NCBI GenBank assembly: GCA_038212275.1
Contig: JBBQUR010000020.1
Span: 1-64,000, forward strand
Origin: Planctomycetota bacterium
Lineage (GTDB): Bacteria > Planctomycetota > B15-G4
Reading direction: 5' to 3'
DNA: 64,000 nt
A program made the translations under genes and the position numbers. This document shows positions 6,185-63,704 of this stretch, one piece after another. The notes beneath the pieces are model-generated. The model was not told the origin of the DNA and ran no database searches. It saw nothing but the letters and a program-made list of their open reading frames with translations. Every line of letters starts with the position of its first letter. Positions within the stretch are counted from its first letter, which is position 1.

Positions 6185-7852
6185 ATGCTGCGTCGTCTGG
6201 AGTCCGTCCGTACCCTGTCGCCCCTCGGCAAGCTGCTGCTGCCGACCTTGCTTGCGGCTTTCGTCGGCTCGCAGCACGCGCTCGCGCAGACCGTCGTCAA
6301 CACGAAGTACGGCGCGGATGCCAATTCCGGATTCGGTGTCGTCGCACCGGCGGGCGACCTCGACCATGACGGCGTGCCCGACCTGCTCGTCGGCGCGCCG
6401 CTTCACGACGAGCCGGGCGTCGGACAGGATGCGGGCCTGGCGCAGGTGCTCGCCGGCTCGGACGGCCACGTGCTGCTCACGCTGCACGGCACGCTCGCCG
6501 GGGAGTTGTTCGGCACGGCCGTCGCGGGACTCGGCGATGTCGACGGCGACGGCACCACCGACCTGCTCGTCGGTGCGCCGGGCCCGCTCGACGCGCTCGG
6601 CCATGCGCGCGTGCACTCCGGCGCGACGGGCGCGCTGCTCTACACGCTCGGCGGCACGCAGCCGGGCGATCGATTTGGCGCCTCCGTCGCCGTCACCGGC
6701 GACGTCGATGGCGACGGCGTCCCTGACCTGCTCATCGGTGCGCCCGCCACCGATGCCGCCGGCAGCCCTGCGGTGAAGGACGCCGGCGCCGCGTTCGCGT
6801 ATTCAGGCAAGACCGGACTGCAGCTCCACGCCTTCGTCGGGACCACGGAGGGTGGTCAACTCGGCGCCTGCGTGGCCGGCCAGCCGGTGGGCACGCTCTT
6901 CGCGGACGATGAGCCCACTGTCATCATCGGCTGCACGGCAGAGGGCGGCGGCAGCCCCGGCCCGGGATCGGTCCAGGTGCACTCCGGCCTGGATTGGCAC
7001 CTGAAGCTGGCCGTCGCGGGCAGCCAGCCGGGCGATCGATTCGGCCGCTCGATCTCGCCGATGGGCGACCTCAACGGGGACGGCGTCGGCGACCTGCTCA
7101 TCGGCAGCCTCGCAGGCTACGCCCGCCTGCTGGACGGCGCGACGGGCGCCACGCTCGCCGAGTTCACCGGCCCGGCGAACACTCTCTATGGTGCGGCCGT
7201 CGGCGGCATCGGCGACGTGAACGGTGACGGCACGCCGGACCTCGCGATCGGCGAACCGGGCGCGGATGCCGCCGGCCTCGATGCCGGCGCCGTCCACGTG
7301 TACTCCGGCAGTGACCACTCCGAACTGCACGTCGTTCACGGCCCGCAGCCGCACGCGGCCGCAGGCACGTCGGTGGCTTTCGCCGGCGACGTGAACGGCG
7401 ACCTGCTCGCCGACGTGGCGGTGGGCACGCCCGGCGCGGGCGCCGACGGCCAGCAGCCCGGCGGCGTCTTCACGCTTTCGCTCACGCGCTGGCAGGATCA
7501 CGGCGGTGGCCTGCCGGGCATCTACGACATCCCGCGGCTCACCGGCCAGGGCGGACTCGTCGCCAACACCGAGGTGGACCTCGTGCTCTCGGGCGCACGC
7601 TCGCTGGCCAGCGTGACGATGGTGCTGGGCACCGCCGTGTGCATCAACGCCTCCAAGGGCACGCTGACTCCGCTGCCGCAGATCGTGACGACGGGCCTGC
7701 TCACGGATTCGGTGGGCGGCCTGCACTACGCGTTCACGTGGCCGACCGGCATGCCGTCCGGCCAGACGGTCTACTACCAGTTCAGCGTGAGCGACCCTGT
7801 GGCCGTGGGCGGCGATGCGCTCTCGAACACCCTGGCCGCCGTCGTGCCGTGA
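6185..7852 (+). CDS. Secreted FG-GAP (integrin-alpha-like beta-propeller) protein with shared C-terminal domain
   Basis: GAGGAG RBS; signal peptide ending ALA-Q; repeats of FG.AV...GDVDGDG.PDLLVGAP; CTD at 7490-7852. Confidence 0.9.
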   Translation: MLRRLESVRTLSPLGKLLLPTLLAAFVGSQHALAQTVVNTKYGADANSGFGVVAPAGDLDHDGVPDLLVGAPLHDEPGVGQDAGLAQVLAGSDGHVLLTLHGTLAGELFGTAVAGLGDVDGDGTTDLLVGAPGPLDALGHARVHSGATGALLYTLGGTQPGDRFGASVAVTGDVDGDGVPDLLIGAPATDAAGSPAVKDAGAAFAYSGKTGLQLHAFVGTTEGGQLGACVAGQPVGTLFADDEPTVIIGCTAEGGGSPGPGSVQVHSGLDWHLKLAVAGSQPGDRFGRSISPMGDLNGDGVGDLLIGSLAGYARLLDGATGATLAEFTGPANTLYGAAVGGIGDVNGDGTPDLAIGEPGADAAGLDAGAVHVYSGSDHSELHVVHGPQPHAAAGTSVAFAGDVNGDLLADVAVGTPGAGADGQQPGGVFTLSLTRWQDHGGGLPGIYDIPRLTGQGGLVANTEVDLVLSGARSLASVTMVLGTAVCINASKGTLTPLPQIVTTGLLTDSVGGLHYAFTWPTGMPSGQTVYYQFSVSDPVAVGGDALSNTLAAVVP

Positions 7853-7879
7853 TCTCGAGGGGGCCGTGATCTCGAGGGG
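7847..7879. repeat. Tandem duplication of ~17 bp (ccgtgatctcgagggg[g]) spanning the stop codon
   Basis: Two adjacent copies are visible. Confidence 0.8.
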
Positions 7880-7912
7880 CCGGACGGCGGACTCGCGCGG
7901 GAGCCGGGCGAC

Positions 7913-10432
7913 TCAGGTTGCTCCGGCGTCGGCTGACGCGTCGCCTTCGGAGCCGAGGCCGTCGAGCAGCAGCCGTGACTCGCGCACCCAGGGATGACCG
8001 GAGCCGAGCGCGGCGAGCAGCGCTGCATGAGCCTCGCGCAGCGTCGCGCGCGCCGCCGACAGGCGACCCTGGAGCAGGTAGCAGCGGCCGAGATTGAAAC
8101 GGAAGCGCGCCGTCGTGCGATGCCCCGGCGGAAACAGCCGGCTGCGGCGCGCGACGCAATCCGTGAGCATCTCTTCGGCCTCCGCGACGCGTCCCTGGTC
8201 CAGGCGCAGGAGCGCGAAGTTGTGTGCGAAGGCCAGCGCATGCTCGTCGTTTGGCCCGAAGCGTTTGCGCTGGATGTCCAGCACCTCGCCGAGCAGCACG
8301 CCGGCCTCGCCCAGTTCGCCGCGCCGATGCAGGAGGTGGCCGAGGTTGTTCATGGCGGTCAGCGCGTGGCTGTGCTCCGGGCCCAGCACGCGGCGCTGCG
8401 CGGGAATCAGCAGGCGGTACAGCGGCTCGGCCTCGTCGGCCTGCCCGTTCTGGGAGAGGGCATTGGCCAGGTCATTGAGCGCGATGAGCGTCATCGGGTG
8501 ACTGTCGCCGTACACCGCGCGCAGTTCTGCGAAGGCGCGGCGGTTCAGCGGAATGGCCTCGGCGCTCTGGCCGGCGTCGCGAAGCAGGTTGCCGAGGTTG
8601 TTCATCGCCGCCAGCGTGTCCGGGTGGGCCTTGCCGAGAGTCGCCTCGCGGCGCTCCCAGACGTGGCGCCACAGTCGCTCGGCCTCGTCCGGCGCCGCGT
8701 GGCTGCGCTGCAGGATGATCGCGAGGATGCTCGCGCTCCGCAGCGTGTCGGGGTGGTCGGCCCCGAGGTGCCGCTCCTGCAGGTCGAGCGTGGCGCGCAT
8801 GAGAATCTCGGCTTCCTCGGGCCGACCGGCGCGGTGCAGCAGAAGGCCCCGCTCCGTCGCCGCCACGAGCGTTTCGGCGTGTTCGTCGCCGAGCAGCTCG
8901 CGATGAAGCTCGTGAGCGCGCTGCAGGTGAGCACCGGCGCGGTCGTAGATGCCGAGCTGCAGGTAGAGCTTGCCGATCGTCAGCCGCAGCGCCGCCTCGT
9001 CCGCCGCCAGCCCCGGGAGGCCGGTCTCGATGCCCGCCGCTGCGCGATCGAGCACCTCGCGCACGGTGACCTCCCGCCCCTGCGCCTCGGCCGGATCGCC
9101 GGAGACCAGCATGTCCGTGAGGAACTCGTTGATGCGCTGGGCCCGCCGCGCCTGGCGCCGCGCCTCTTCGCGCGCCTCGCTGATGTCTTCGAGGTAGTCC
9201 TGCAGCGCGAGCGCCATCTCCGAGGCGGAGGCGTAGCGGTCTTCGATGGCGCGGGCCATCGCCCGATCGCAGATGGCGACAAGCGTCGGCGGCGCGTCGG
9301 GGGCCAGTTCGAGCAGCGGCGTGGGAGCTTCGCGGCGCAGGCGCCACAGCACCTCGATGGGCATGGGCGTCGAACCTGGCTCCACGTAGGGCATGCGCCC
9401 GGTGAGCAGGTGATAGAGCAGCGCGCCCAGCGAGTAGATGTCCGAACGTTCGTCCACATGCGCGATGTCGCCGCAGGCCTGCTCGGGCGACATGTAGATG
9501 GGCGTGCCCTGGAGGGTCGGCTCGGTCTCGAAGAGCCAGTTGTCCGGCCTTTCTTCGGCCACGCCCTCCGCGGCCGACGCCGCGGGCTGGGTGAGCATGC
9601 GCGCCAGTCCCCAGTCCATGAGGTAGGTCTCGCCGTAACGCCCCACCATGATGTTCGGCGGCTTGATGTCGCGATGGATCACGCGCTTGCTGTGCGCGTA
9701 GGCGACGGCCTCGCAGACGCGCTGGATGACGCCCACCACGCGGTTGAGCGTCCAGCCGCCCGTTCCCGTGTGCAGCTGATCGAGGATGGTGCGCAGGGTG
9801 GTGCCCTTCACCAGCTTCATCGTGAAGTAGGCGCACCCGCTCTCGTCCACGCCGAGTTCGTGCACCGGCACGATGCCGGGGTGATCGAGCTGCGACGTGA
9901 CCAGGGCCTCGTCGAGGAAGCGCCGCAGGGCATCCGTCTCCCGCGCGGGGTCCTCCGGCCGGGTGACCGAGGCGCCCATGACCTTCATGGCCAGGTCTCG
10001 GCGCAGGCTGGTGTCCAGGACGCGGCGCACGACGCCCATGCCGCCCCGGCCCAGTTCTCCGCGCTGCTCGTAACGACCCGACGCGGCCGAGCCAAGCCGC
10101 AACTGTTCCAGCAGCGCCGTGAGTTCCTCCGGGCCGGCCGGTCGGCCGCCGCCCACCTGCAGCGACATCGTGGGCTGCGACAGGTCGTCGTACGGATTGG
10201 CGAGAAATTCGTCGAGGGTCAGCTGCCGGCCTGTCGCGAGCACCGTGCGCAGCAGTTGCTCCACGTCGGCAAGGCTGCGTTCGAACTGCCGCAACTCGGC
10301 TTCGTGCTCGGGGTGCTGCGAACAGAACTCGTCGAAGCTGAGCGACGATCCAGACTTCTTAAGCGCCAGATGACGTAAAAATAGAGCCTCGGCTTCAGAG
10401 CGTCCGCCTGGCTGTTCGCTGGCTGTCATCAC
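7913..10432 (-). CDS. Ser/Thr protein kinase with kinesin-light-chain-type TPR repeats, no obvious TM
   Basis: LGRGGMGVV, AMK, HRDIKPPN, DWG, GTPIYMSPEQ, DIYSLG; repeats LG.DHPDTL..MNNLG. Confidence 0.93.
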   Translation of the reverse strand: MMTASEQPGGRSEAEALFLRHLALKKSGSSLSFDEFCSQHPEHEAELRQFERSLADVEQLLRTVLATGRQLTLDEFLANPYDDLSQPTMSLQVGGGRPAGPEELTALLEQLRLGSAASGRYEQRGELGRGGMGVVRRVLDTSLRRDLAMKVMGASVTRPEDPARETDALRRFLDEALVTSQLDHPGIVPVHELGVDESGCAYFTMKLVKGTTLRTILDQLHTGTGGWTLNRVVGVIQRVCEAVAYAHSKRVIHRDIKPPNIMVGRYGETYLMDWGLARMLTQPAASAAEGVAEERPDNWLFETEPTLQGTPIYMSPEQACGDIAHVDERSDIYSLGALLYHLLTGRMPYVEPGSTPMPIEVLWRLRREAPTPLLELAPDAPPTLVAICDRAMARAIEDRYASASEMALALQDYLEDISEAREEARRQARRAQRINEFLTDMLVSGDPAEAQGREVTVREVLDRAAAGIETGLPGLAADEAALRLTIGKLYLQLGIYDRAGAHLQRAHELHRELLGDEHAETLVAATERGLLLHRAGRPEEAEILMRATLDLQERHLGADHPDTLRSASILAIILQRSHAAPDEAERLWRHVWERREATLGKAHPDTLAAMNNLGNLLRDAGQSAEAIPLNRRAFAELRAVYGDSHPMTLIALNDLANALSQNGQADEAEPLYRLLIPAQRRVLGPEHSHALTAMNNLGHLLHRRGELGEAGVLLGEVLDIQRKRFGPNDEHALAFAHNFALLRLDQGRVAEAEEMLTDCVARRSRLFPPGHRTTARFRFNLGRCYLLQGRLSAARATLREAHAALLAALGSGHPWVRESRLLLDGLGSEGDASADAGAT

Positions 10433-16446: not shown

Positions 16447-16659
16447 GCGGCAGGCCCCCGGAAGCTGAGATCCGTGGGCGCCCGCAGCACCCGAGCACGC
16501 GGGCGGCTTGGGTCGGGCGACACGATCGGCGCGCAGGTTAGCCGACGATGCGCCGGCCGGGAAAGGGGGACGGCGCGACGCGGACGGCAGCGCCGCACAT
16601 GAGCCACGAGTATGATCCGCCCCGAGCGCGGCAAGCTCGCGCAGCCCGGGGACTCTCAC

Positions 16660-21719: not shown

Positions 21720-24700
21720 TCAGGGCACCGAGCAGACCACGCACTTGAGTCCATTGCTGAAGCGCACCGGCCAGGGCGCCGGCTGATTCTGCGCGAAGGC
21801 CTGAAAGTGGAGGCTCACGCCCAGAAGTGCGGGCTCTTCGGGCAGCATGCCGCTGAGCACCGAATCCCCCGCCGCGCCGAACGGGATGGGGAGTTGCACG
21901 AGATTGGCTCCGCCCACCAGGAACTTGCCGCCGAGCAGCGGCACATTGCCGGGAAGAAAGGCCAGCATGAGCATGCCGGGACTCGGCCCCTGCGCGCCGG
22001 AGACGCGCAGCGTGAAGGGCAGACCCACGAAGGCCGGGTCCGGCGCCTCGAGCACCAGCGTGTGCGGACCACCGAGATCCGTGCCGTACGCCTCGGGCTC
22101 GCAGCCTGCCGGCGCCGCCGGCGCCAGCACGCGCAGCTCGCCCGCACTCGTGTAGTGGCGCGAGCCGGCCGGCACGCCCGAGATGCGCACCGCATCGGCG
22201 AGCGTCGGCGTAATCGACAGCAGGTGCGACTCGTAGGACACGCCGTCGAGCCCGCCGTACTCCGGTGAGCTGACGAGCCCGGGCGCCTCCACCCAGGGCC
22301 CCTGCTCTCCGTTCCGCACCTCGACCTTCAGCGTGCCGGCGACGAAGGCGCCGCCGAGGACGGAATCCCGCCCCTCCTTGTAGAACAGTCCCGTGATCAG
22401 GCGCTTCAAGGGAAAGGCGTAGCCAAGCCAGTCCTCGGCGCCCTGGTCGCCGCCGTGCGCCGTGTCGAACTGTCCGATCAGGCTGCTGCTGCCTTCGGGC
22501 GGATAACTGCCGTCGCGCATCACCTCGGGATCGTGATTGCCGGCGCCGGTCGGATGCGGCGGCGACAGCGTGAAGACCTTGGCGAGGATCGTCGTCGCCT
22601 GGTCGGTGATGTCGCGCACGGCGAGGACGGGCTTGATGCGCACGAGCTGCGCGCGCAGTTCCGCGCAGGTGACGTAGTGCGCGCTGCCGCCGGGCGCGCC
22701 GCGCAGACGGATCGCGTCTCCGAAGATCGGATCGAAGTGCAGCGTGTAGGTGTCGAAGCCGTGCCCGTCGAAGCCCGGTTGTCCGGCGAGCTCGAACGGA
22801 TACGCGGGCTGGCTGGAGACATTCCCGACCGCCGTCCACACGCCTTCGTCGCGGACCTCCACGTGGAAGGAGCTGAACCAGCCGCCGCCCTGCGTGTGCA
22901 GGCCCTCCTGGAAGACGAGGCCGATGAAGCGCTGCTCCGGGGCGGGTGGCGCGTCCAGTTCGTAGCCCAGCCAGACGTCATTCGGGTCGCCGGCGGGATT
23001 CAGCGTGTCGAACTGCTGCAGCGGATCGGTGGTGCCGGGAGGAGGAAAGTTTCCGTCGCGCAAGATCTCGAGATCGTGCTGGCCGGGACCCTGCGAGCCC
23101 GGCGGAGTCAGCAGATCCGTCGACGCCATCGGCAGCATGGAGCCGGTGAGATCCTGGACATCAGACTCTGCGTAGACGAAGACGTGCGTGCGGCCGACCG
23201 CTCCCAGCGGATCGGAGGCGGCCAGTTCGATGCGGTGATAGATGAGCGAACCCTCGCTCCCGTGCAGGTCCAGCACGATCTCGGCGGTTGGCTCCGTGGC
23301 GTGGAAGCTGCCCGGATGCACGTGCGTGTTGTGATAGAGATCCGCGGTCCACTCCCACGCGGAGATCGGCTCGTCGTCGGGATCGGTGGCGTCGCCGACG
23401 AGCGGCAGCGTCGCGGGCGCCACGAAGGTGGTGCCCGGCACAGGCGCCAGGATGCGCGGGATGGGCGGCGCATCGCCCGCCGTGACGAGCACCGGAGAGG
23501 CGGTGGCCGAGAGGCCCAGCGAATCCGTCACCGTCAGGCGCACCTCGAAGACTCCGACACGGTCCCAGCTGTGAGAGGGCTGAAGTTCCGTCGAGGGCGG
23601 GCTGCCGTCGCCCCAGTCCCAGGACACGGTGATCGCATCGCCGTCAGGGTCGGCGCTGCCCGCAGCGCTCCACGAGACGTCGAGCGGCAGCGGCCCCGCC
23701 GTCGGCGTCAGCGCAACGGGCACGGGCACCGGCGTGAGATTGTCGACGCCGTAGCGCAGGCGATGGATGCGCTGCCCGAAAATGTCGGTGTAGTACAGCT
23801 CGCCGGTGACCGGGTGCATCGCGAGGTGCGTGGGCGAGTGGATCCCCTCGGCGAAATCGCGCACGCCCAGCAGGCTGCCGTCGGGCGCGAGGTCCACCTG
23901 GCGGATCCACTCCTGGCCGTAGTCGTAGATGAAGAGCCGGCCCTGGTACTCGGCCGGATAGGCCGTGCCGGTGTACACCGGGCCTGCCAGCGCGCAGCTT
24001 CCCGTGAAGCCGCCGAGCGGAACTCCCGCCGCGTCGACGTGCAGGCCGACCGGCACGAGCAACTCCTTGTTGTAGTGATGCCACGAGAGCGCGGGCGCGG
24101 TGAGCACGCCGGGACCCGCCGTCCCGCAGCCCGGAACTCCGGGCTGGGTGGGCGTCACCCCTTGATACATCGTGTTGACATCCGTGCCTTCGAAGCACGG
24201 CCAGCCGAAGTTCTCGCCGCCACGGCAGATGTTGAGGTCTTCGCGGGTGTTCCAGCCGACATCGCCCACGTAGAGCAGACCGGGTCGCCCCTGCGCAGGG
24301 TCCGCGAAGCCCGTGCCCGGCTTGAGCGTCATGCGGTACGGGTTGCGGAGGCCCAGCGCCCACACGCGGCTGCGGAGGCTGCCGACATTGCCGTCGTAGA
24401 AGGGATTGCTGGGCAGGCCGCGGCCCGTTTCCGGATCCAGGCGCAGCACCTTGCCCGCGAGGCTGTTCAGCTGCTGGGAGCGGAAGGCGCCGACATCCTG
24501 CGCCTTGGGGATCGGGCCGTGCAGGCCCGTGACGGGATGCACGAAGTCGTCGAAGCCGGCATCGTCCGCGCCGCCCGCATCCACGAAATCATAATGCGCG
24601 CCGTCCCCCGCGGAGACGAGCAGCGTGCCGTCGGCGCCGAAGACGAGCGTGCCGTTGGAGTGGCTGTGGTGCAGCGACGCGATGCCGTCTGGCACCGTGC

Positions 24701-33867: not shown

Positions 33868-33896
33868 GGCGTGCGCGTCATCACGGTCTTGGGGCG

Positions 33897-33924: not shown

Positions 33925-33948
33925 GCTGGCTCCGGGGCCGCGCGCCGC

Positions 33949-36750: not shown

Positions 36751-36858
36751 GGGAGCGCGCACCTCGCACGGGGGCCGCGGGCCATGCCGGCCCGCCCGAA
36801 GGGGAGGCACAGAATCCGGCCGGCGGGCCGCGCCGTCAAATCCGCTGCCGCCCCGCGC

Positions 36859-40994: not shown

Positions 40995-40999
40995 GGGTT

Positions 41000-42156: not shown

Positions 42157-42157
42157 C

Positions 42158-44487: not shown

Positions 44488-44525
44488 CTCCCGTTTGCCT
44501 TTCTGGATCTCATGGCCGCGCGCTC

Positions 44526-47531: not shown

Positions 47532-47661
47532 GAGCGGACCGTTTTCTCCTTGGGGTGTCGAATCCGCGGGAGCGTAGGAATCGCTTTGCAGGACGAAGTG
47601 AACGCTGCGTGGGGATCGCGTGAAGGCGATTCTCGCGCGATCACACAGGAGACCGGGGCCT

Positions 47662-47679
47662 GTGAAGATTCAGGGAAGA
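47662..47679 (-). promoter_or_regulatory. Pho-box-like direct repeat (TCTTCCC-tgaa-TCTTCAC)
   Basis: 11-bp period, about 130 bp upstream of the TBDR start. Confidence 0.45.
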
Positions 47680-47710
47680 TCCGACAGGCACGCGCGATGC
47701 CCGGCGGTCT

Positions 47711-49018: not shown

Positions 49019-49187
49019 CTGTCAGCCCCGTGGGGAGGAATCATCGCGTGGAGGTTCGAAGTGGTCAGTCTTGTCGAGGGCCGGCCCGTGCAGGCGCCGG
49101 CGCGATGCATCGCATCGGAGCACCCCGGGCGGCCTCCGCCCGGCCGAAGCCGGACGAAGACCGCCTGGAGCGAACGCGTGGCACTGC

Positions 49188-51065
49188 TTACGGCTGGCCC
49201 GTGGCCTTCATGCAGTTGGACAGCGAGACGCCCTTCACGGCGGCCGCGTCCTGGATGCCGTACTGGAAGTAGAGCGAGACACCCGTCAGGTTCGGAACCG
49301 TGGGCCACACGATCGGCAGCGCGAGCGCGCCCACCGAGTTGGTGCCCAGGTCCAGCTGGAGGATGATCGGAATCGTCTTCAGCGTGCCGCCCTTGAACGG
49401 AACCGGCGTGGAGGAGACCGACACCAGCAGCACCGCGAGGGCGTTGGCCTTGGCGTTGGTCAGCTCGAGCGAGTTCACGCTGTTCGGCGTGAGCGGGCCC
49501 GTGCCGGTGAGCGTCGGATACGCCCGGTCGGCCGGAAGCGCGCAACCTTCATCGGTCCACGGATTGTCCGTCGTGGTGAAGCCGAACGCCGCGGAGGCCG
49601 TCCAGTCGGAGAGCCAGCTCTGGCCGGGAGCGAACGCGCCACGGTACTTGGCTGCCGAGAAGAAGCCGTCGGCCGGAGCCGTCGCCACGCTCGTGAGCGC
49701 CGAGGCCGCCGGACGCGGATCGAGCGAGATCACGGGAAGCATGTTCTTGCCGCCCTTGACGACGAGCGGGCCGCGGGTGATCGCCGCGATCGGCTGATCA
49801 ACCAGGGCAGAGCCGGCGTTCACGTTGTTGTTGGCCGGGTTGAAGACGCCGACAGTGGTCGCCTCCGTGTAGGCCGACGCGAACAGGTTGCGGAAGAAGA
49901 CGCTGTCCTTGATCTCCGCGAGGTTGCCGTTGACCTGGGACTGGTTGAGGGCGGAGAACACCGCCGGGGTGGTCCACGTGTTCAGCCACGAGAGCGTGCC
50001 GTTGAAGCCGTAGCCGGCGCCGCCGTCGCCATCGACGTTGTCGAGCTGGACGAGACGCTCGCCCAGGTCCATCCAGATGCAGTTCCGGTACTGCACGCGG
50101 GCGTTGTCGCGCCACGCCGTGCCATGGTCACCGTCGATCGGCTGGCCGATGCAGGTGAAGTTGTAGATCGAGGCCGTGGTGACGGGGAGCCAGTCGGAGT
50201 TCTCCGCGCCGTCGGTCTCGAAGAGGTTGTCGCCGACACCCGAGCCCTGCGACGCGTTGGCCGCATAGCCCTGCACGAGCAGGCCGAACTGCGCCTTGCC
50301 GCGCCAGCCCTGGTCGATGTCGAAGCTGTCGTCACCGATGTTCCAGATGTTGACGTACTTCAGGTTGACGGTGCCGCCCCAGATCTCGATGCCGTCATCG
50401 ACGTTGTTCATGATGTCGATGTGGTGGATGTCCGTCTCGCGACCGACGCCGCCCAGCGAAAGGCCGTTGAGCTCGTTGTTCAGCGCGACGACCTTGCCGC
50501 CGTAGCGCAGCGACAGGTACTCGATCGTGCCGCTGTTGTCGTCGTCGTCACCGCCGCCGTAGAGCACGTTCGGGTCGCCGGGGAAGGCAGCCACGAGCCC
50601 CTCCATCGCGCCGATGTTGTTCGCATTGGGCGTCGGCACGTTGCCGAGGATGGCGTCCTCCGAGATGTAGCCCTTGCCCATGATGGTGAGGTTGCCCCAC
50701 TCGTTGACCGCCTCGCGCCATGTGCCGGTCTTCGGGTTGCCGCCGACCCACGTCGCGACGTCGGCCTTGGAGGTCATGATCACCGGATTGTCCTGCGTGC
50801 CGAGCACGAAGATCTTCGCGCCGCGCGCCACGGCCAGGCTGCCGCCGATGTTGGTCGTGCTGGCGACGATCGTGCCGGCCTCGATCGTCAGGGTCGCACC
50901 CGGGAGCACGTAGATCTGGGTCTGCAGGTTGTAGGTGTTGTTCGCTGTCCACGTGGTGGACACGGCGATGTTGCTCGACACGAGAATATCAGCGGCCTGC
51001 GCCGAGCCGGTCAGGCCGACTCCCAGCGCGACGGCTGCTGCTGCTGCTTTGATGGAACTGCTCAC
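49188..51065 (-). CDS. Secreted beta-helix-like protein of the TBDR-associated (ElpS-like) family with shared CTD
   Basis: GAGGAG RBS, GTG start, signal ending AQA-A; ATLTIEAGT, DDNSGTIEYLSLRYGG, NELNGLSLGGVG, DDGIEIWGGTVN, GDDSFDIDQG, YRGAF..SW..DWT. Confidence 0.85.
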   Translation of the reverse strand: MSSSIKAAAAAVALGVGLTGSAQAADILVSSNIAVSTTWTANNTYNLQTQIYVLPGATLTIEAGTIVASTTNIGGSLAVARGAKIFVLGTQDNPVIMTSKADVATWVGGNPKTGTWREAVNEWGNLTIMGKGYISEDAILGNVPTPNANNIGAMEGLVAAFPGDPNVLYGGGDDDDNSGTIEYLSLRYGGKVVALNNELNGLSLGGVGRETDIHHIDIMNNVDDGIEIWGGTVNLKYVNIWNIGDDSFDIDQGWRGKAQFGLLVQGYAANASQGSGVGDNLFETDGAENSDWLPVTTASIYNFTCIGQPIDGDHGTAWRDNARVQYRNCIWMDLGERLVQLDNVDGDGGAGYGFNGTLSWLNTWTTPAVFSALNQSQVNGNLAEIKDSVFFRNLFASAYTEATTVGVFNPANNNVNAGSALVDQPIAAITRGPLVVKGGKNMLPVISLDPRPAASALTSVATAPADGFFSAAKYRGAFAPGQSWLSDWTASAAFGFTTTDNPWTDEGCALPADRAYPTLTGTGPLTPNSVNSLELTNAKANALAVLLVSVSSTPVPFKGGTLKTIPIILQLDLGTNSVGALALPIVWPTVPNLTGVSLYFQYGIQDAAAVKGVSLSNCMKATGQP

Positions 51066-51278
51066 GGGGTTGGACTCCTCAACAGGTTCGCTCCACGGAT
51101 CGCGGAGGAGACACTCTCCTTCGCCTGATGGCTCCGTGTTCCGGCAAGCTAGAGACGCGATGTGGGCCGGACGTGAAGAGCCGGTGCGATTTCGCCCAAT
51201 TCCGGCGGGCTGATCGCGAACAGGTCGGCCACGCACGACGCGACATCTGCAGCCTGGAGTGAATGCCGTCAGCCTGCG

Positions 51279-51307
51279 GCGAAGACGGCGTGAAGATCGC
51301 CACAAGA
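51279..51307 (-). promoter_or_regulatory. Pho-box-like triple repeat (TCTTGTG / TCTTCAC / TCTTCGC)
   Basis: Three TCTT-headed heptamers at exact 11-bp spacing, upstream of the first gene of the TonB cluster. Confidence 0.45.
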
Positions 51308-53424: not shown

Positions 53425-53429
53425 TCCAC

Positions 53430-55070
53430 TCACGGCATGAAGTGCGCCGACACCACGTTGGAGATGCCGACGCCCTTGGGCTGCGCCGGATCCTGCACAA
53501 TGACCTGCAGCAGCACATCGAAGGCGCCGAGACCTCCCGGCACGCCGGGGATCAGGACCTTTCCCTGCGCGTTGGTCGTGAGCGTGAACGCCGCGCCGAG
53601 GCCGAGATCCGGCACCAGCGTGCCGCCCTTGAAAGGGAGACTCGCTGCCTGCAGCGAGACGGCCAGCAACGCGGGCCGGTTCGCCGGCGCGTTCTTCAGC
53701 AGCAGGTCGGCCTTGCCGCCCGGACCCAGCGTCGTGCCGCACAGGCTCAGCTTGCTGACGCCCGGGCCGCCGAAGCCGAGGTCCGCCTGGCAGACCAGCG
53801 GCGAGATCACCGACACGGTGCCTTGCTTGCCGTTCGCTTGGGTGGCGTAAGGCGCGCCGATGAGCATCTCCGGCCAGCCGTCACCGGTCACGTCGCCGAG
53901 GTGCGAGAGCGCGGTGCCGAAGGAATCGCCGAGTTGCCCGGTCATGTCCGGCAGCAGCGCAGCGCCGGTCGCGAGCGACAGCACCCGCGCAAAGCTCGGC
54001 TTGCCGGGCGTGAGCGGCGCGCTGCCGACGAGGAGGTCCGGCGTGCCGTCCTTGTCCACGTCGCCCGCCACATCGAGGACCACGCCGAACTGGTCGCTCA
54101 TCGCGTCGCCGGTGAAGACCCACGAGGCCGCGCCCGCCGGGCCACGGAAGACGCGCACCGACCCGCGTCCGCCGTTCTCGCTGTAGGCCCCGACGGCGAT
54201 GTCGGCAAAGCCGTCGTGGTCGAAGTCGCCGAGGCCCGCGATCGCCGTGCCGAAGAGCGTGAGTTCCCCGGCGCCGTAGCGCGAGTAGAGCACCGAGCCG
54301 TCGACGCCCGAGCGCACTTCGACGCGCCCCGTCAGGTCACCCAGGCTCTGGTCCCCCGGTACGCCGACGACGAAGTCCGGCTTGCCGTCGCCGTTCACGT
54401 CGCCCGCGGCTGCGACGCACCAGCCCATGCGCTGGTTGGCCGAGCCGTAGAAGGTGTTGAGCACGACACCGGTGGCGCCGTCGATCAGCCGCGCGCGGCC
54501 CGCGAGCGGCACGAGCGCGCTGCTCTCGTAGTCGGGCGCACCGACGACGAAGTCCGGCCGGCCGTCGCCGGTCACGTCGCCCACACCGGCGATGGAGAAG
54601 CCGAAGCTCTCCTTCGACTTGGTGCCGTTCACCGTGTAGAGCTTGCTGCCGGTCAGTCCGGAGAAGACCTGCACCGAGCCCGTGTCCGTGCCGTTGACGT
54701 CCGTGCCGAGTGCGCTGATGGCGACGTCGCCGTGACCGTCGCCGTTCACGTCGCCAAGGCCGGCCACCGCGTAGCCGAACTGTTCGTTGACCGCCGCACC
54801 GTGCAGCGAGAGCAGCAGCGACCAGTCCTTGCCGGAGTAGACGTAGGCGCTGCCGCTGTTGGCGCCGAAGTCCGTGTCGCCGGCCTCGCCGACGAGGATG
54901 TCCGGCACGCCGTCGTGGTCGACGTCGCCAGCCGACGCGACGGCGCGTCCGAAGTGGCCCTGCGGCGCGGTGCCGCTGAAGACGTGCTGACTGAGCTGTG
55001 CGCGAGTCTCGGCGCAGAGCAGGGCGCTGCCGGCGAGCGCGAGGAGACCGGCGATGCGAAGCTGAATCAT
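53430..55070 (-). CDS. Secreted FG-GAP protein with shared CTD (tandem paralog 2)
   Basis: Signal ending TRA-Q; seven FG...GDV.GDG..D...GA repeats; CTD at 53430-53792. Confidence 0.92.
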   Translation of the reverse strand: MIQLRIAGLLALAGSALLCAETRAQLSQHVFSGTAPQGHFGRAVASAGDVDHDGVPDILVGEAGDTDFGANSGSAYVYSGKDWSLLLSLHGAAVNEQFGYAVAGLGDVNGDGHGDVAISALGTDVNGTDTGSVQVFSGLTGSKLYTVNGTKSKESFGFSIAGVGDVTGDGRPDFVVGAPDYESSALVPLAGRARLIDGATGVVLNTFYGSANQRMGWCVAAAGDVNGDGKPDFVVGVPGDQSLGDLTGRVEVRSGVDGSVLYSRYGAGELTLFGTAIAGLGDFDHDGFADIAVGAYSENGGRGSVRVFRGPAGAASWVFTGDAMSDQFGVVLDVAGDVDKDGTPDLLVGSAPLTPGKPSFARVLSLATGAALLPDMTGQLGDSFGTALSHLGDVTGDGWPEMLIGAPYATQANGKQGTVSVISPLVCQADLGFGGPGVSKLSLCGTTLGPGGKADLLLKNAPANRPALLAVSLQAASLPFKGGTLVPDLGLGAAFTLTTNAQGKVLIPGVPGGLGAFDVLLQVIVQDPAQPKGVGISNVVSAHFMP

Positions 55071-55254: not shown

Positions 55255-56898
55255 TCAGTTCAGGAAGTGCGCGAGCACCACGTTGGAGAGCGCGAAGCCC
55301 TTGGCCTGCGCCGGATCCTGGATCACCACCTGCAGGAAGACGTCGAAGAGTCCGAGCCCGCCGGGAATGCCGACCAGGTGCATCGCACCGTGCGTGTCGG
55401 TCGCGAGCACGAACGTCACGCCGCTGGCAAGGTTCGGCACGATCACTCCGCCCTTGAAGGCCTTGGCGGACGCCTGCAGCGACGCCGCCAGCAGCGCGGG
55501 CCTGCTCACCGCCGCGCCCTGCAGCACGATGTCCGCCTGGCCCGCCGCGCCGAGCGGCGCGCCGCACATCGAGAGGTGCGCGAGACCCGGGCCGCCGGAG
55601 CCGAGGTCGGCCTGGCACCAGAGCGGCGAGTAAACCGTGACCTGGCCCTGCGTGGCGCCGACGATGGCGTACGGCGCGCCGACGAGCACGTCCGGCCAGC
55701 CGTCGCCGGTGACGTCGCCCGCGGCGGCGAGGGCGCTGCCGAAGCCGGAGATGTTCGGGCCTGTCGGACTGCCGTATAGCGGCAGGCCCGTCGCGCCGGA
55801 GAGCACGCGCACGTAAGGGAGCTTGCCGCCGTTCGGCGGGAAGGTGCCGACGAGCAGGTCGGCGTGACCGTCCTTGTCCACGTCACCGGCTGCGGAGACG
55901 GCCGTGCCGAAGCGGTCGTCAGGCGCGTCGCCGACAAAGATCCACGAGGCCGCGCCGCTCGGGCCGCGGTACACGTGCGCCGCGCCGGCAGCGCCGGACT
56001 CGCCCGAGGCGCCGACCAGCAGGTCCGCGAAGCCGTCGCCATCCACGTCGCCGACACCGTCCAGCGCCGTGCCGAAGAAGGACGCGGCGTGCGGGCCGAA
56101 GCGCTGGTAGAGCAGCGCGCCGCCGTTGCCGGAGCGCACGTCGATGCGGCCGGTTGCGGCGCCGAGAATGGCCTCGCCGGGCGCCCCCATCGCGACGTCG
56201 TCGCGGCCGTCGCCGTCCACGTCGCCGGCGCCTGCCACCACGCTGCCCAGCCGGTCGCCTTTCTTGCCGACGAAGGTGAGCAGCGTCGCGCCCGTGTTGC
56301 CCGAGACGACGATCACGCGCCCCGCATCCGGCGTGAGCCCGAGCACGCCGTCGTAACCGGGCGCGCCGATGACCATGTCCGGGATGCCGTCGAGGTTCAC
56401 GTCGCCGGCCGCGGCGATGGAGAGGCCGAAGTTCAAGCCGGCTGCGCTGCCGGTCAGCGCATAGATCAACACGCCGGTCTTGCCGGAGTAGACGCGCACC
56501 GCGCCGGCCTGGGCGGCGACGCTGCTGTCGTAGGGCGCGGCCACGGCGAGGTCCGCGAAGCCGTCGCCGTTCACGTCACCCGGGCCTGCCACGGAGCGGC
56601 CGAACTGCTCGAGCGTCGTGCCGCCGTGCAGCACGCGCAGCAGCGACCAGTCCTTGCCGGAGTAGACGAAGGCGCTGCCGGAGGCGTAGCCGTTGACGCT
56701 GTCCGCGGGCGCGCCGAGCAGGATGTCGTCGATGCCGTCGGCATTCACGTCGTGCGCGGCCGCCACGGCCTGGCCGATCTGCGCCGATTGCGTGATCGAC
56801 GTGAAGACGTGCTGGGAGATCTGCGCGTGAACCGGCGCGCAGACCAGCGCGCTGCCGGCGAGCGCGAGGAAACCGGCCGTGATGTGAGATTGATGCAT
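55255..56898 (-). CDS. Secreted FG-GAP protein with shared CTD (tandem paralog 1)
   Basis: Signal ending VHA-Q; seven FG-GAP repeats colinear with 53430-55070; CTD at 55255-55620. Confidence 0.92.
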   Translation of the reverse strand: MHQSHITAGFLALAGSALVCAPVHAQISQHVFTSITQSAQIGQAVAAAHDVNADGIDDILLGAPADSVNGYASGSAFVYSGKDWSLLRVLHGGTTLEQFGRSVAGPGDVNGDGFADLAVAAPYDSSVAAQAGAVRVYSGKTGVLIYALTGSAAGLNFGLSIAAAGDVNLDGIPDMVIGAPGYDGVLGLTPDAGRVIVVSGNTGATLLTFVGKKGDRLGSVVAGAGDVDGDGRDDVAMGAPGEAILGAATGRIDVRSGNGGALLYQRFGPHAASFFGTALDGVGDVDGDGFADLLVGASGESGAAGAAHVYRGPSGAASWIFVGDAPDDRFGTAVSAAGDVDKDGHADLLVGTFPPNGGKLPYVRVLSGATGLPLYGSPTGPNISGFGSALAAAGDVTGDGWPDVLVGAPYAIVGATQGQVTVYSPLWCQADLGSGGPGLAHLSMCGAPLGAAGQADIVLQGAAVSRPALLAASLQASAKAFKGGVIVPNLASGVTFVLATDTHGAMHLVGIPGGLGLFDVFLQVVIQDPAQAKGFALSNVVLAHFLN

Positions 56899-56979: not shown

Positions 56980-57020
56980 CAGATCCGGATCGCGCGCGAA
57001 AAGGTCTCAGCCGGGCGCGC
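56980..57020 (-). promoter_or_regulatory. 41-bp conserved upstream element, copy 2 (overlaps the kinase stop codon)
   Basis: Near-identical to 55152-55192 and the same distance (~82 bp) from the downstream ATG. Confidence 0.6.
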
Positions 57021-60000
57021 AGGCCGCCAGAAGCTCCTCGAATTCCGGCAGCTCCCGCAGCGAGGCCAGGTCGTCCGAGGTGGCGAGGTTCGTCCGGTCG
57101 TCGTAGCCCGCGGCGATCGCCTGGCGCAGAAGGTCGAGCGCTCGCGCACGGATGACATCGGCCAGCCCCGCGGCCTGTTCCGGCCCCACGGCACCCGCGG
57201 CGGAAGCATCGCCCGCGGCGGATGCGCCGGGTGAGGGGCCCGCAGCGGTGGCCGTCAGCGCGGCGGCCGTCAGCGCGGCGGCCGTCAGCGCGGCGGCCAG
57301 CTCGGCGTAGAGGCCCGCCCCCAGGCGCACCTGCAGCGCGGTGCCCGGCGGGTCGGCGAGATAGTCGTCGGCGGCGGCGCGCGCGGCGTCCCAGTCCTGC
57401 AGTTCGCGGCACATCGCGGAGAGCCGGCGATGCTGCCCGCGCAGCGTGGTCCTCCAGGTCGTGTTCGTCGGCGCGCGCTCCGCCGCGAGGCGCTGTTCCT
57501 GCGCGGCGCGCTCGAGAATCGGCCGCGCCTCGGCCAGCGCCCCCTGCTGCGAAAGCAGCTCCGAACGGTTGGTGAGCATGAGCGCGAAACGCGCGCGCAT
57601 GTCGGGCGAATCGGGCGCCGCGTCCAGCACGCGCTCCTGCGCGGAGATTGCTTCGGCCAGCAGCGCACCGGCTTCCTCGAAGCGTTGCTGCTGCAGGCAC
57701 GCCACGCCCAGCCCGTTGGCGGACATCGCGAGGAGCGTCAGGTTGTCCATCGAGTCGGGGAATTGCTCGACCAGCTCGCGCTGACCCTGCAGCGCCTGCC
57801 GGTAGCGGACCTCCGCCTCGTCGACGCGTCCGAGTTCGCGCAGCAGCAGCCCGAGGTTCTGACGCAGGCTGGCCAGTTCCTGGCGGCAGACCCGGTCGGT
57901 CGGGAGGATCTCCAGCGCCGCCAGATAGTGCTGCTCGGACGCGTTGTAGAAGGCCTCGGCCTCGGGCGTGCGATCGAGCGAGCGCATCAGCCCGCCCAGA
58001 TTGTTCTGCAGGTAGGCCACGCGGCGCTCGTTTTCCGGATCGCCGGGCTGCTCGTCCGCAATCCGCAGGAGCAGCTCCAGCGCTTCGCGCAGCGGCACCT
58101 CGGCTTCCTGCAGCTGGCCCGCGCGCAGCAGTCTCACGCCCACGGAGTTGGTCAGGCTCGCGATGCTGCTGGCCGTGTGGAGGTCTCCGGGTGCGATCTC
58201 CTCGCGGCGCCGGAACAGCTCGCGCGCGCGCGCGTCGGCCTCGTCGGAGGCCGGATAGTCGCCCGCGGTCTGCTCCGCCAGCCCGATGTCCATCCACACG
58301 TCCCCGAGGTCCGTGAGAAGCTCGGGCGTGTCCGGATGCGAGGCGTTCAGCTCCTCGAACAGCGCGCGCGCCTCCTCGAAGGCCGAGCGCGCGATCTCCA
58401 CGTCCTGCGACACCATCGCCAGCTCGCCGATGCGTCGCGCGGTCCGTCCCGCCGCCTGGCGCAGCTCGGGCACGTCCCGGTGGCTGCTCAGCAGCTCGCG
58501 GTAGAAGCCGAGCGCGTCCTGCAGCAGTTGCCGGCGCACGGGTCCGACCTGCGGCACGTTGGCCAGCGACTTGTCGCCGACACGCGCGAGCATCGTGTCG
58601 ACGGCCCCCATCGCGCGCTGCAGGTCCATGCGCGCCGCATCGCGCTGTGCAGCCGCCTCCTCGCCTTGCAGGCGCGCCTGCTCTCCCTGAAAGGTCGCCT
58701 CGTCCAGCGCGGCCCGGATCGCGATGTTGGCGCGCCGCTCCCACAGGCCCCAGGCCAGCGGTCCGCCCACCACGAGCAGGACGCTCATGACCAGCGCGGT
58801 GCTGGCCGCCGGATGGCGCTGCACGAAGCGGCGCGCGCGCAGCAGCATGCCGGGGCGCCGCGCCTCGACGGGCCGGCGCTGGAGCACGTTGTCCAGGTCG
58901 CGCGCGAATTCGCCGGGGCCTGCGTAGCGGCGCGCGCAGTCGGCCTCCATCGCCACGAGGCACACCGTTTCGGCGTCCCGCGGCACGGCGGGATTGCGCA
59001 CGCGCAGCGGCGCCGCCGCACCCGCAAGGATCGCTGCGCGCAGGCGCTGCTCGTCCTCCGCCGCAAAAGGCGTGGACAGAGCGAGCAGCTCGTACAGCGT
59101 CACGCCCAGCGAGTAGACGTCGCTGCGCGCATCGAGGCTCGTCACCTCGCCACGCACCTGCTCCGGCGACATGTAGGCCAGCGAGCCGAGCTGGCTGCCG
59201 CTGCGCGTGATGCGGCTGCTGCCCTCGGCGGCGGCCAGGCCGAAATCGAAGAGCAGCACGCGGCCGTCGGGCGTGAGCATCAGATTGCTGGGCTTCACGT
59301 CGCGGTGCAGCACGCCGCGATCGTGCGCATGCTGCAGCGCCTGGGCCGCCTGCCCCACCAGTCGCAGGCAGGCCTCGACCCAGCTGCCCGCAAAGCTGCG
59401 CGCGCCAGTATCGCTGCCGCTGCCGCGGCTGCCGCGCGAGTCACGCCCATCGCGCGCACCTTGCGCCGCCGGCTCCGGAGCCGGCGCCCCCTCGCGCCGC
59501 GCGACGACGGCCACGACCGCGCGCTGCAGGTCGCGTCCCGTCAACGCGGCGGGATCGCGGCTGTGCAACTCCGCAAGCACCTCGGCAAGCGTCGCGCCGC
59601 GCACCCATTCCATCGCGAAATAGGGCACGCCGGACTCTTCACCGACGGTGTAGATCGGCACGATGCCCGGATGCGCGAGGCGCGCGACGGACTCGGCCTC
59701 GCGGCGGAAGCGCTCGCGCGCTCCGGGGAAAAACAAGTGCTCGGGTCGCACGAGCTTGAGCGCCACGCGACGCTGCAGCGAGGTCTGCTCGGCGAGGTAG
59801 ACCACGCCCATGCCGCCGCCGCCGAGCCGCTGCAGCAGGCGGAACTCGCCGAGGCGTTCGGGGATGGCTTCGGGCGCGGCGCCGTTGGCGTCGCCACCGA
59901 GTTCGAGCAGGCCCGCGGCGTGAAGCATCTGCAGGCGTTCGCGGATCGCAGGCGCGAGGTCCGGTCGCCGCGCGCAGACGTCCTCGAAAACCGCCGAGCC

Positions 60001-60084
60001 CTCCTCCTCGACGCGCTGCAGGCATTCCTCGACGAGTGCCCGGATCTCGAGCGCGCGCTGGCTCTGTCCGTCGCCCTGGGTCAT
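57007..60084 (-). CDS. Ser/Thr protein kinase with TM segment and C-terminal TPR repeats
   Basis: LGGGGMGVVY, VALK, HRDVKPSN, DFG, GSLAYMSPEQ, DVYSLG; TM ASTALVMSVLLVVGGPLAWGLW; TPRs. Confidence 0.94.
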   Translation of the reverse strand: MTQGDGQSQRALEIRALVEECLQRVEEEGSAVFEDVCARRPDLAPAIRERLQMLHAAGLLELGGDANGAAPEAIPERLGEFRLLQRLGGGGMGVVYLAEQTSLQRRVALKLVRPEHLFFPGARERFRREAESVARLAHPGIVPIYTVGEESGVPYFAMEWVRGATLAEVLAELHSRDPAALTGRDLQRAVVAVVARREGAPAPEPAAQGARDGRDSRGSRGSGSDTGARSFAGSWVEACLRLVGQAAQALQHAHDRGVLHRDVKPSNLMLTPDGRVLLFDFGLAAAEGSSRITRSGSQLGSLAYMSPEQVRGEVTSLDARSDVYSLGVTLYELLALSTPFAAEDEQRLRAAILAGAAAPLRVRNPAVPRDAETVCLVAMEADCARRYAGPGEFARDLDNVLQRRPVEARRPGMLLRARRFVQRHPAASTALVMSVLLVVGGPLAWGLWERRANIAIRAALDEATFQGEQARLQGEEAAAQRDAARMDLQRAMGAVDTMLARVGDKSLANVPQVGPVRRQLLQDALGFYRELLSSHRDVPELRQAAGRTARRIGELAMVSQDVEIARSAFEEARALFEELNASHPDTPELLTDLGDVWMDIGLAEQTAGDYPASDEADARARELFRRREEIAPGDLHTASSIASLTNSVGVRLLRAGQLQEAEVPLREALELLLRIADEQPGDPENERRVAYLQNNLGGLMRSLDRTPEAEAFYNASEQHYLAALEILPTDRVCRQELASLRQNLGLLLRELGRVDEAEVRYRQALQGQRELVEQFPDSMDNLTLLAMSANGLGVACLQQQRFEEAGALLAEAISAQERVLDAAPDSPDMRARFALMLTNRSELLSQQGALAEARPILERAAQEQRLAAERAPTNTTWRTTLRGQHRRLSAMCRELQDWDAARAAADDYLADPPGTALQVRLGAGLYAELAAALTAAALTAAALTATAAGPSPGASAAGDASAAGAVGPEQAAGLADVIRARALDLLRQAIAAGYDDRTNLATSDDLASLRELPEFEELLAACAPG

Positions 60085-60262
60085 CGCGCTCCGGTCTGCC
60101 TCAGAGGCCCCTGCGCAACCCGCCTGGCCGCCACGGCCGCGCAGTCTATCCGGCCGCCGACCGGCCCGTGCACGCGGCGCTCCGTCGCGTGGCGTACGGC
60201 GGCCCTCACGGCTTCCGGAAGCATCGAGTCCCGACACGTCGACGGCGGGTTAGGATTCCGCC

Positions 60263-60889
60263 GTGAGCGATGACAGCCGCATCCTCGTCGAGCAGGCGGC
60301 GCGCGGTGATGGCGCGGCGATCGAGCAGTTGCTGCAGCGGCACATGCCCGGACTGCGCGCCTATGTGCGCCTGCGCTCCGGCGCCATGCTGCGCGCGAAG
60401 GAATCCTCCAGCGATCTCGTGCAGTCCGTCTGCCGCGACGTCCTGCAGAACATCGACACCTTCCGCTTCCCCGGCGAGGCGGCGTTCCGCGGCTGGCTGT
60501 ACACGACGGCCATGCGCAAGATCGCCGATCGCGCGGAGTACTGGAGCGCCGGCAAGCGCGACGCGGCGCGCGAGGCGCTGCCCGTCAGCCAGCGGCTGGG
60601 AGCCGGCAGCCTGTCGGCACCGAGCGCCGCGGACGACGAGCTGCTTTTCGACTGCTATCGCAGCGTCTGCAGCCCGAGCGGCGAGGCCGCCGGGCGCGAG
60701 GCGCTGGAGCACATGGAGCGCGCCTTCGAGAAGCTGCCCGACGACCATCGCGAGGTCATCGTGCTCTCGCGACTCGTGGGCCTGACGCGCGTGGAGATCG
60801 CCGAGCGCATGGGCCGCACCGAGGCGTCCATCCGCAACCTGCTGCCGCGCGCGCTGGCCGAGCTGGCCGACCACCTCGCAGGAAGCTGA
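60263..60889 (+). CDS. ECF sigma-70 factor, kinase-associated type
   Basis: LVEQAARGD..AIEQLL, LRAKESSSDLVQSV, FRGWLY...KIADR, LPDDHREVIVL...GL...EIAERMGRT. Confidence 0.93.
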   Translation: MSDDSRILVEQAARGDGAAIEQLLQRHMPGLRAYVRLRSGAMLRAKESSSDLVQSVCRDVLQNIDTFRFPGEAAFRGWLYTTAMRKIADRAEYWSAGKRDAAREALPVSQRLGAGSLSAPSAADDELLFDCYRSVCSPSGEAAGREALEHMERAFEKLPDDHREVIVLSRLVGLTRVEIAERMGRTEASIRNLLPRALAELADHLAGS

Positions 60890-62494: not shown

Positions 62495-62684
62495 CGCCGC
62501 AGGATGAAGGCGGCAGCGCGCTCTGGCAAGTCCGGCCTCTGCGGAGGAGTTCGTGCCTTCCTCCGCGCGGGTGGGAGAACTTCCGGGCAGCCCCCCGGAA
62601 AGCATGACGCGACGTTCACGGCCCCGCGGCAGGGCGACTTCTATCCTCCGGGCGTCCTCCAAGACTCCTCTCCGGATCAATCCC

Positions 62685-63704
62685 ATGAACACGATGGTCA
62701 TGTCCCTGGACACGTTCAACCGAGGCCGCTTGCGCACCGCCGCGTGCGCGTTGCTGCTGCTCGCCGCCTTCGGGCCGCGCGTCCACGCCCAGGTGGTCTT
62801 CGCCAAGGCGCCGAGCCCGGCCGGCGGCGTGAATGCCTCCTCGTGGGTGCCTCCGGACGGCAGCGACTCCGACATGTACTCGTGGGACGACTTCACGCTG
62901 GCCACGACGCAGACCATCACGGAGGTGCGCTGGCGCGGCGGCTACGCGCTCGGCGCGACCTACGGCAAGGCCACGGACTTCCGCGTGTCCTTCTTCGCGT
63001 CCAACGTGACCGGCTTCGAGCCGAAGATCGTCGCCATCCCCGAGAACGAATCCCAGGAGCAGGCGCTGATCAACGTCCACACGAACAACAATGCGGGCGA
63101 GAGCTTCGCGGGCGTCTTCGGCGGCGTGGCGATGTACGACTACCACTTCACGCTGCCCGTCCCGTTCGTCGCGCAGGCCGGCGTGAAGTACTGGTTCCGC
63201 GTCGTGTGCGGGCAGCCCGTCTACCCGGACTGGGGCATGGCCACGAGCGATCCCGCGGGCAGCCACTTCCGCTACAGCACCGGCAGCACCATGTTCCACA
63301 ACTACTCGCACGACCTGGCGTTCTCGCTGCATGCGCGCTGGGCCGACCTCGGGGGCGCCATCGCCGGCACGTCCGGCGTGCCGGCACTTGGCGGCGCCGG
63401 AAGCCTGACGAGCGGCTCGGCCGACACGCTCACGTTGACCTCGGCGAGGCCCTCGTCCGCCGTGACGCTGCTCTTCGGCGTGTCGAAACTCGGCGCGCCC
63501 TTCAAGGGCGGCACGCTGGTGCCTGATCCGTTCCTGCTGCTCGCCTTGACCAGCGACGCGCAAGGCCACGTGTCGCTGCCCTTCACGCTGCCGGCGGGCC
63601 TGCCCCCCGGAACGTCGCTCTACTTCCAGGCCTGGCTGCCCGACCCGGCCGCGGTGAAGGGGCTTGCCGCGAGCAATGGCCTCGCCGGCACGACGCCCGG
63701 ATGA
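62685..63704 (+). CDS. Secreted beta-sandwich protein with shared CTD
   Basis: Signal ending VHA-Q; DDFTL....TITEVRWRGGY...L..PF...AG..YW...; CTD at 63339-63704. Confidence 0.8.
   Translation: MNTMVMSLDTFNRGRLRTAACALLLLAAFGPRVHAQVVFAKAPSPAGGVNASSWVPPDGSDSDMYSWDDFTLATTQTITEVRWRGGYALGATYGKATDFRVSFFASNVTGFEPKIVAIPENESQEQALINVHTNNNAGESFAGVFGGVAMYDYHFTLPVPFVAQAGVKYWFRVVCGQPVYPDWGMATSDPAGSHFRYSTGSTMFHNYSHDLAFSLHARWADLGGAIAGTSGVPALGGAGSLTSGSADTLTLTSARPSSAVTLLFGVSKLGAPFKGGTLVPDPFLLLALTSDAQGHVSLPFTLPAGLPPGTSLYFQAWLPDPAAVKGLAASNGLAGTTPG

Follow-up and report, generated by a model that had tools for sequence, protein, structure and literature searches.

A window of 64,000 nucleotides from a Planctomycetota bacterium (C20:1-64000 of a 4.65-Mb, 40-contig assembly with roughly 70% G+C and 91% completeness) encodes six exported proteins which all end in the same domain. 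The six tails are members of one homologous domain family, which is large and uncatalogued in the domain libraries. Comparative evidence is good, and the domain is probably a localisation tag. We tentatively favour the view that it is a modular localisation tag of Sec-exported proteins in this Planctomycetota class, which would act as a retained docking module. The domain is about 120–124 residues long and its copies in the window are listed below, with E-values from a hidden Markov model (HMM) that left the window out. This was built from 67 tails found elsewhere (60 from the same genome and seven from short metagenomic proteins), and E-values were computed at Z = 44,411 open reading frames (ORFs).

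7490..7852 (+), tag domain 1: C-terminal on an FG-GAP protein, gene probably 6185-7852; E 8.9e-29
21720..22103 (-), tag domain 2: C-terminal on a GSDH and PKD protein, gene probably 21720-25220; E 1.7e-13
49188..49559 (-), tag domain 3: C-terminal on a passenger without a library family, gene probably 49188-51065 with a GTG start; E 4.3e-38
53430..53792 (-), tag domain 4: C-terminal on an FG-GAP protein, 53430-55070; E 1.3e-24
55255..55620 (-), tag domain 5: C-terminal on an FG-GAP protein, 55255-56898; E 9.1e-21
63339..63704 (+), tag domain 6: C-terminal on a DUF7901 protein (P0162), gene 62685-63704, 339 aa; E 3.3e-43

Translation recovered the six ORFs claimed in a preliminary description of this DNA, each ending in a domain tail. 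All six tails were matched by the HMM over nearly their full length (E 3.3e-43 to 1.7e-13), the tail of the GSDH and PKD protein being the most divergent, and the top score among 1,200 shuffled tails was 14.7 bits (E 0.063). The tails can indeed be aligned, over 141 columns of which ten are invariant, with 22–37% identity to the first tail. A Q-x14-SN spacing is present in all six and an opening D[LHE]G motif likewise, the latter displaced in the GSDH protein, and FKGG occurs in four, with SKGT and LLGG in the remaining two. The T[DN]xxG motif had been credited to five tails, strictly it is found in four, since the tail at 63339 reads SDxxG. Tag domains 4 and 5 form one sub-type with a cysteine at the opening and F-M-P at the end. 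Signal-peptide-like N-termini, judged by eye, follow plausible starts in all six proteins (for tag protein 1 at position 6185), and the tails lack both a transmembrane helix and a basic end, in line with the earlier statement that they do not resemble PEP-CTERM or LPXTG signals.

The protein parts in front of the tails (passengers) were less uniformly as described. Three FG-GAP propellers and a GSDH protein with PKD were correctly recognised, and the small passenger is a DUF7901 protein; the carbohydrate-binding module (CBM) also assigned to the GSDH protein has no library support. The label “beta-helix/ElpS-like” for 49188-51305 was not upheld, with neither a Pfam nor an NCBIfam family matching there, and “six unrelated passengers” was too strong a wording given that three are FG-GAP propellers. 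An 877-aa FG-GAP protein at 14026-16659 (-) in the window has no copy of the domain, hence tagging of FG-GAP passengers is not universal.

No Pfam or NCBIfam family was detected on the six tails at E ≤ 0.1. A larger set of 73 tails (the 67 from outside the window and the six within) gave only isolated chance matches to both libraries at E ≤ 10. Searching the PDB by sequence produced a best E of 0.18, matches in the ESM Atlas were uncharacterised Planctomycetota clusters only, and no paper on the domain was found in a literature search that rested on titles and abstract openings.

The domain is present in large numbers within the genome and beyond it. When all stop-to-stop ORFs of the genome were scanned, 134 possessed the domain, which in 128 ended within six residues of the stop codon; the initial profile of the six window tails had detected 127 ORFs in the same genome, 124 of them ending within four residues of the stop. 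Among 1.84 billion proteins, the six-tail profile matched 6,224 metagenomic cluster representatives at E ≤ 1e-3 and 3,722 at E ≤ 1e-10, and for 146 of the 150 top-scoring representatives the match ended no more than seven residues from the C-terminus. In the genome, 122 tagged ORFs have 250 aa or more, and their passengers fell into 56 BLAST clusters (41 singletons). Among the passenger families seen are FG-GAP, beta-helix, PD40, Kelch, Laminin_G, CHRD, M10 and M14 peptidases, GSDH and an esterase. A crude signal-peptide rule was positive for 95 of the 122 tagged ORFs compared with 842 of 1,852 other likely genes, which is an enrichment and not proof.

All 42 genomes of the window's class contain the domain, many with at least 105 matches and those of one family (f89) with just 6–12 per genome. 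In an even sample of the whole phylum 38 of 201 genomes were positive at E ≤ 1e-5, and beyond the class the domain was found in 28 of 191 sampled genomes. Named carriers are Planctomycetota metagenome-assembled genomes, except for the cultured Engelhardtia mirabilis, in which a hypothetical protein (P0346) shows the domain at residues 211–333 of 333 (E 4.9e-33). Engelhardtia mirabilis is described as having 70.3% G+C and as grouping with the uncultured UBA1135, UBA8108 and GCA-002687715 (10.1101/817700). The spread over many exported families, the occurrence throughout the class and the extreme C-terminal bias bear out the modular, lineage-restricted terminal tag put forward in the preliminary description.

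Homologous passengers were found to end in different modules. For passenger 1, the DUF7948 and propeller part of P0159 (residues 30–700), the domain was found on 19 of the best 120 homologues and was always terminal. Of 13 homologues of the same length checked with Pfam, 12 possessed Por_Secre_tail ending 2–5 residues from the C-terminus (nine matches above the Pfam gathering score), and the 13th showed only FlgD_ig. A third tail type was present on 16 homologues. This is a distinct sub-family which a profile of this genome's tails missed at E ≤ 1e-3, and hhalign aligned it with the domain at a probability of 97.4% (E 9.9e-12 over 97 columns), the two having a common Q...SASN-type end; on this profile comparison it is a sister tail from the same superfamily. 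Furthermore, the homologue P0249 has a dockerin by Pfam and two others end in dockerin-like repeats, as judged by eye. Two more homologues of passenger 1, P0290 and P0316, bear the source label “TIGR03437 family”, which we take to be a lineage-specific C-terminal domain of Acidobacteria and which may be a further swap partner.

Passenger 2, represented by the window's DUF7901 protein (P0162 residues 35–215), gave a similar picture. The domain was present on 51 of 80 homologues, while the other 29 included two with dockerin (PF00404), two with FlgD_ig and two with PKD, and further homologues without the domain end in dockerin-like or T9SS-like sequence by eye (T9SS, type IX secretion system). 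On both passenger types, therefore, the terminal slot is filled, lineage by lineage, either by known localisation modules or by the domain.

The preliminary description had drawn an analogy with the C-terminal domain (CTD) of T9SS cargo proteins, which is supported by the swapping on homologous passengers but not by sequence homology. The domain, as modelled, and the type A CTD (PF18962/TIGR04183) are both beta-sandwiches that form the very end of proteins with a signal peptide, shared by many unrelated families and in many copies per genome. The domain also takes the slot of Por_Secre_tail on DUF7948-propeller passengers and that of FlgD_ig on DUF7901 passengers. However, none of the 73 tails matches PF18962 or TIGR04183 at E ≤ 10, and when 13 genuine T9SS-type tails were compared with the 73-tail profile by hhalign, the probability was 1.1%. 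T9SS tails have roughly 70–100 aa and seven strands; with its 11 strands and about 124 aa the domain is longer, and it is found in N-terminal, internal and stand-alone positions as well. No T9SS CTD fold was seen among the Foldseek and VIA structure matches listed.

With this likeness comes another explanation, which we consider doubtful: the domain could be the cargo signal of an undescribed Planctomycetota outer-membrane export route, recognised like the T9SS CTD by a translocon in the periplasm and possibly removed later. A strictly C-terminal position on signal-peptide proteins would be expected of such a signal, and so would replacement of Por_Secre_tail on homologous passengers and a high copy number per genome, the last being also true of T9SS cargo sets. 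The end of the domain is conserved, with a final proline in 80 of 110 tails and mostly T-P or V-P endings. The tag is also less conserved than its passenger (40–49% compared with 64–74% identity in orthologue pairs, n = 4). Finally, the passengers look extracellular, and the gene bearing tag domain 3 heads a conserved cluster for TonB-dependent uptake, described below.

Dockerins offer a second comparison. The type I dockerin (PF00404), a small calcium-binding helical module, is likewise a mostly C-terminal and occasionally N-terminal or internal tag on varied exported proteins, and shares a slot with the domain on homologous passengers. The domain differs in being all-beta, in that none of its 73 tails matches PF00404, and in that no cohesin-like or repeated scaffold was found. 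None of the 18 dockerin-rich genomes among the 201 sampled possesses the domain, and PF00404 has no match in this genome or in the other four sampled from its family, a non-overlap which is only suggestive because related genomes are not independent. SLH-type anchors, terminal modules at either end which hold varied exported proteins on an envelope polymer, are alike in the behaviour we propose and have no sequence or fold relation to the domain. PPC domains are small C-terminal beta-sandwiches on enzymes that are secreted; they are credited with a part in secretion or binding and in some cases are removed. The tails have no Pfam match to such extensions, and the passenger range and copy number of the domain are far larger.

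AlphaFold2, run for the tail of tag domain 6 on the 73-tail alignment, predicted an all-beta structure of 11 strands (pLDDT 97.8, pTM 0.90). Foldseek found no PDB chain at E ≤ 1e-3, and the VIA structure search returned macroglobulin (MG) domains of CD109, A2M, TEP1 and C3/C4 as well as immunoglobulin (Ig) receptors with Z 8.6–8.0 over 87–102 residues, scores which are typical of a common arrangement and indicate the fold class, not a functional family. The predicted fold is thus an Ig-like/MG-like beta-sandwich without a specific solved relative. Among conserved polar positions Q97 is invariant, and D102 and N113 are conserved in at least 90% of tails. At the junction of passenger and tag there is neither a flexible low-complexity linker nor a conserved cleavage-type motif, and the 30 residues upstream are passenger-like in composition. 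Homodimer prediction scored 0.14 against a mark of 0.42, which speaks neither way.

Glucan-recognition and carbohydrate-binding domains, along with N-domains of GH66 enzymes, are among the weak structural neighbours, and together with the beta-sandwich fold they bring into view a CBM-like or adhesive Ig-like module for an external ligand (a polysaccharide, a particle or another cell) with no placement role. The tolerance of varied positions would suit this explanation, as would a median isoelectric point of 5.4 and the lack of any membrane-anchor feature in the tails, and a glycosyltransferase of the GT-C type, introduced below, could hold its glycan acceptor through the domain. We nevertheless judge it unlikely. 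A single specificity would have to serve no fewer than 56 unrelated types of passenger, redox proteins and peptidases among them, CBMs are normally not restricted to the last residues of a protein, and the slot is one common to sorting and docking modules, not to CBMs. The structural matches are also generic, with a best Z of 8.6 and nothing from Foldseek at the threshold above.

Copies of the domain away from a free C-terminus bear most directly on how the tag might work. In the protein at C7:48432-49715 (+) a signal peptide is followed by the domain and then by a metallo-beta-lactamase fold. This N-terminal-tag architecture was found at full length in 14 further genomes from two families of the class, at 49–67% identity; untagged paralogues of the metallo-beta-lactamase-fold protein are present as well. 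Two giant exported proteins encoded close to each other, of about 1,300 and 1,670 aa (C4:144058-147963 and 149834-155149, both (-)) possess a divergent N-terminal copy, one of them with TIG, GSDH-like and Kelch domains and the other with a malectin domain in addition. A protein on contig C28 has an internal copy with about 170 residues beyond it. In the metagenomic representatives P0010, P0140 and P0143 the domain directly follows the signal peptide, while P0082 and P0102 are stand-alone proteins of signal peptide and domain only.

A further copy lies 8.8 kb past the end of the window, where a polytopic PMT_2-type GT-C protein (C20:72814-75138 (+)) bears the domain at its terminus behind a tether of roughly 40 Gly-Ala residues. 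The full fusion recurs in only one of 20 relatives searched (genome G206), at 43% identity, and is hence old but rare; a place for it in the core machinery of the tag was rejected on the same count. The N-terminal, internal, stand-alone and GT-C-tethered copies speak against a signal dependent on a free C-terminus and are more in keeping with docking. The lack of overlap with dockerin-rich genomes and the lack of a linker or cleavage-type motif at the junction are further points on the side of docking. For the export route, the N-terminal copy conserved in 14 other genomes is a particular difficulty, as are the internal and stand-alone copies and the one tethered to a polytopic inner-membrane protein, which is not exportable. 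Taken with the evidence for a terminal signal, these copies lead us to rank a docking module above an export signal.

As a docking module, the domain would work as follows. In Planctomycetota of this class it would be joined to proteins that leave by the Sec route, in nearly every case at their very C-terminus. Once Sec export is complete, the domain, in its folded form, would remain on the mature protein and dock it non-covalently to a common component of the cell envelope; our guess for this component is a glycan of the envelope or some other surface structure that is abundant. Enzymes, propellers and binding proteins would thereby be kept at the cell instead of diffusing off, and the domain would thus behave like a dockerin or an SLH-type anchor rather than a cleaved export signal.

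Several points weigh against a docking role. The C-terminal bias is extreme (128 of 134 ORFs) and, with the final proline in 80 of 110 tails, resembles a recognised terminal signal. The tag diverges faster than its passenger, as signals typically do and as one would hardly expect of a module that binds a single conserved ligand, and swapping with T9SS CTDs suits an export signal equally well. Retention of the domain on the mature protein is something we infer, and the periplasmic side of the GT-C fusion's tail is presumed from knowledge of that protein family. Furthermore, genome searches gave no receptor, repeat scaffold or ligand, and the only enriched neighbours of tagged genes were kinases.

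Searches for a partner covered both readings. The window contains no cognate machinery for the tag, as had been noted in the preliminary description. In the genome, the models for SprA, PorV, PorP/SprF and GldM (TIGR04189, NF033710, TIGR03519 and TIGR03517) had no match, a weak argument against the export route given that the control genomes were almost silent too, with one family responding; Por_Secre_tail was likewise not matched in the genome, with controls almost silent. One tagged protein, P0050, is itself a C25 peptidase. A PorU-like sortase role for C25 peptidases was rejected, as these do not co-occur with the tag: PF01364 is found in 111 of 201 genomes and has no match in five tag-rich ones (G000, G105, G127, G022 and G165). 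This lack of co-occurrence also counts against an export route, as does the fact that no candidate translocon emerged from the partner searches. Of 52 outer-membrane-barrel-like ORFs listed by C-terminal pattern, none could be tied to the tag, and no link of the tag to an S-layer was seen.

Self-comparison of genome fragments detected no repeat-rich scaffold, only nonribosomal peptide synthetases (NRPSs), a tandem UvrA and a sortilin/BNR protein. The NRPS genes are at C6:156321-163022 and 171215-181423 (+), encoding 2,233 and 3,402 aa, and the double-length UvrA-like gene is at C14:108239-114505 (-) with 2,088 aa. Because the tag was present in every class genome scanned, simple phylogenetic profiling can not tell a partner from other class-specific genes.

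The failure to find a partner, machinery or ligand, together with the generic fold, would also be expected if the domain had no common role and were a neutral structural cap or folding aid spread by domain shuffling. We regard this as very improbable. The domain is universal in the class (42/42 genomes) and massively expanded, it has a strong positional bias with invariant or near-invariant polar positions, it is swapped systematically with known localisation modules, and it was kept in nine of ten orthologues of tag protein 3.

These orthologues come from a conserved gene neighbourhood. The gene of tag protein 3 (49188-51065 (-)) is the head of a minus-strand cluster of TPR, TonB-receptor, ExbB and TonB genes spanning 39585-51065, with the following members by Pfam downstream of it.

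47711-49018 (-): TPR gene, downstream of tag gene 3
44526-47531 (-): TonB-dependent receptor with a CarboxypepD_reg N-domain
42158-43609 (-): ExbB
41000-41731 (-): TonB
39585-41081 (-): second TPR gene

Of the 41 other class genomes, 14 contain an orthologue of the tag protein 3 passenger. In the ten loci fetched, a TPR gene always adjoins the orthologue of tag gene 3, and receptor, ExbB and TonB follow in identical order in five; the receptor is on the opposite side in two more, hence nearby in seven overall. The tag domain is retained at the extreme C-terminus in nine of the ten. This context is compatible with, though no proof of, a role of tag protein 3 in a step that precedes uptake, at the outer membrane or beyond it.

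Tagged FG-GAP genes in the window are adjoined by genes for Ser/Thr kinase-TPR proteins and for sigma factors of the extracytoplasmic function (ECF) type (57007-60237 (-), 7913-10432 (-), 60263-60889 (+) and 4884-5786 (+)). When 70 paralogue families were compared for enrichment around tagged genes, nine of 33 members of the kinase-TPR family lay within 1.5 kb of one, against a background of 11% (p 0.009, uncorrected). This was the sole family enriched near tagged genes, but it was rejected as machinery of the tag, the kinases being regulators. Elsewhere in the window, at 31945-36810 (-), a cyanophycin-synthetase-like gene with Cyanophycin_syn, ATP-grasp and Mur-ligase domains adjoins a second gene with a Mur-ligase domain.

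To our knowledge, the placement of many large exported proteins in Planctomycetota is largely unknown. A name for the domain would give an annotation to a large number of C-termini now listed as “hypothetical”, and sequence alone would then suffice to delimit which proteins of these bacteria are exported or at the surface. It is possible, if rather less than probable, that the domain is the signal of a wholly undescribed outer-membrane export pathway, a functional analogue of T9SS built from unrelated parts; if true, this pathway would serve about 3% of the proteome in the class. The domain offers a handle on the receptor or translocon, and its presence in the cultured Engelhardtia mirabilis makes its role directly testable.

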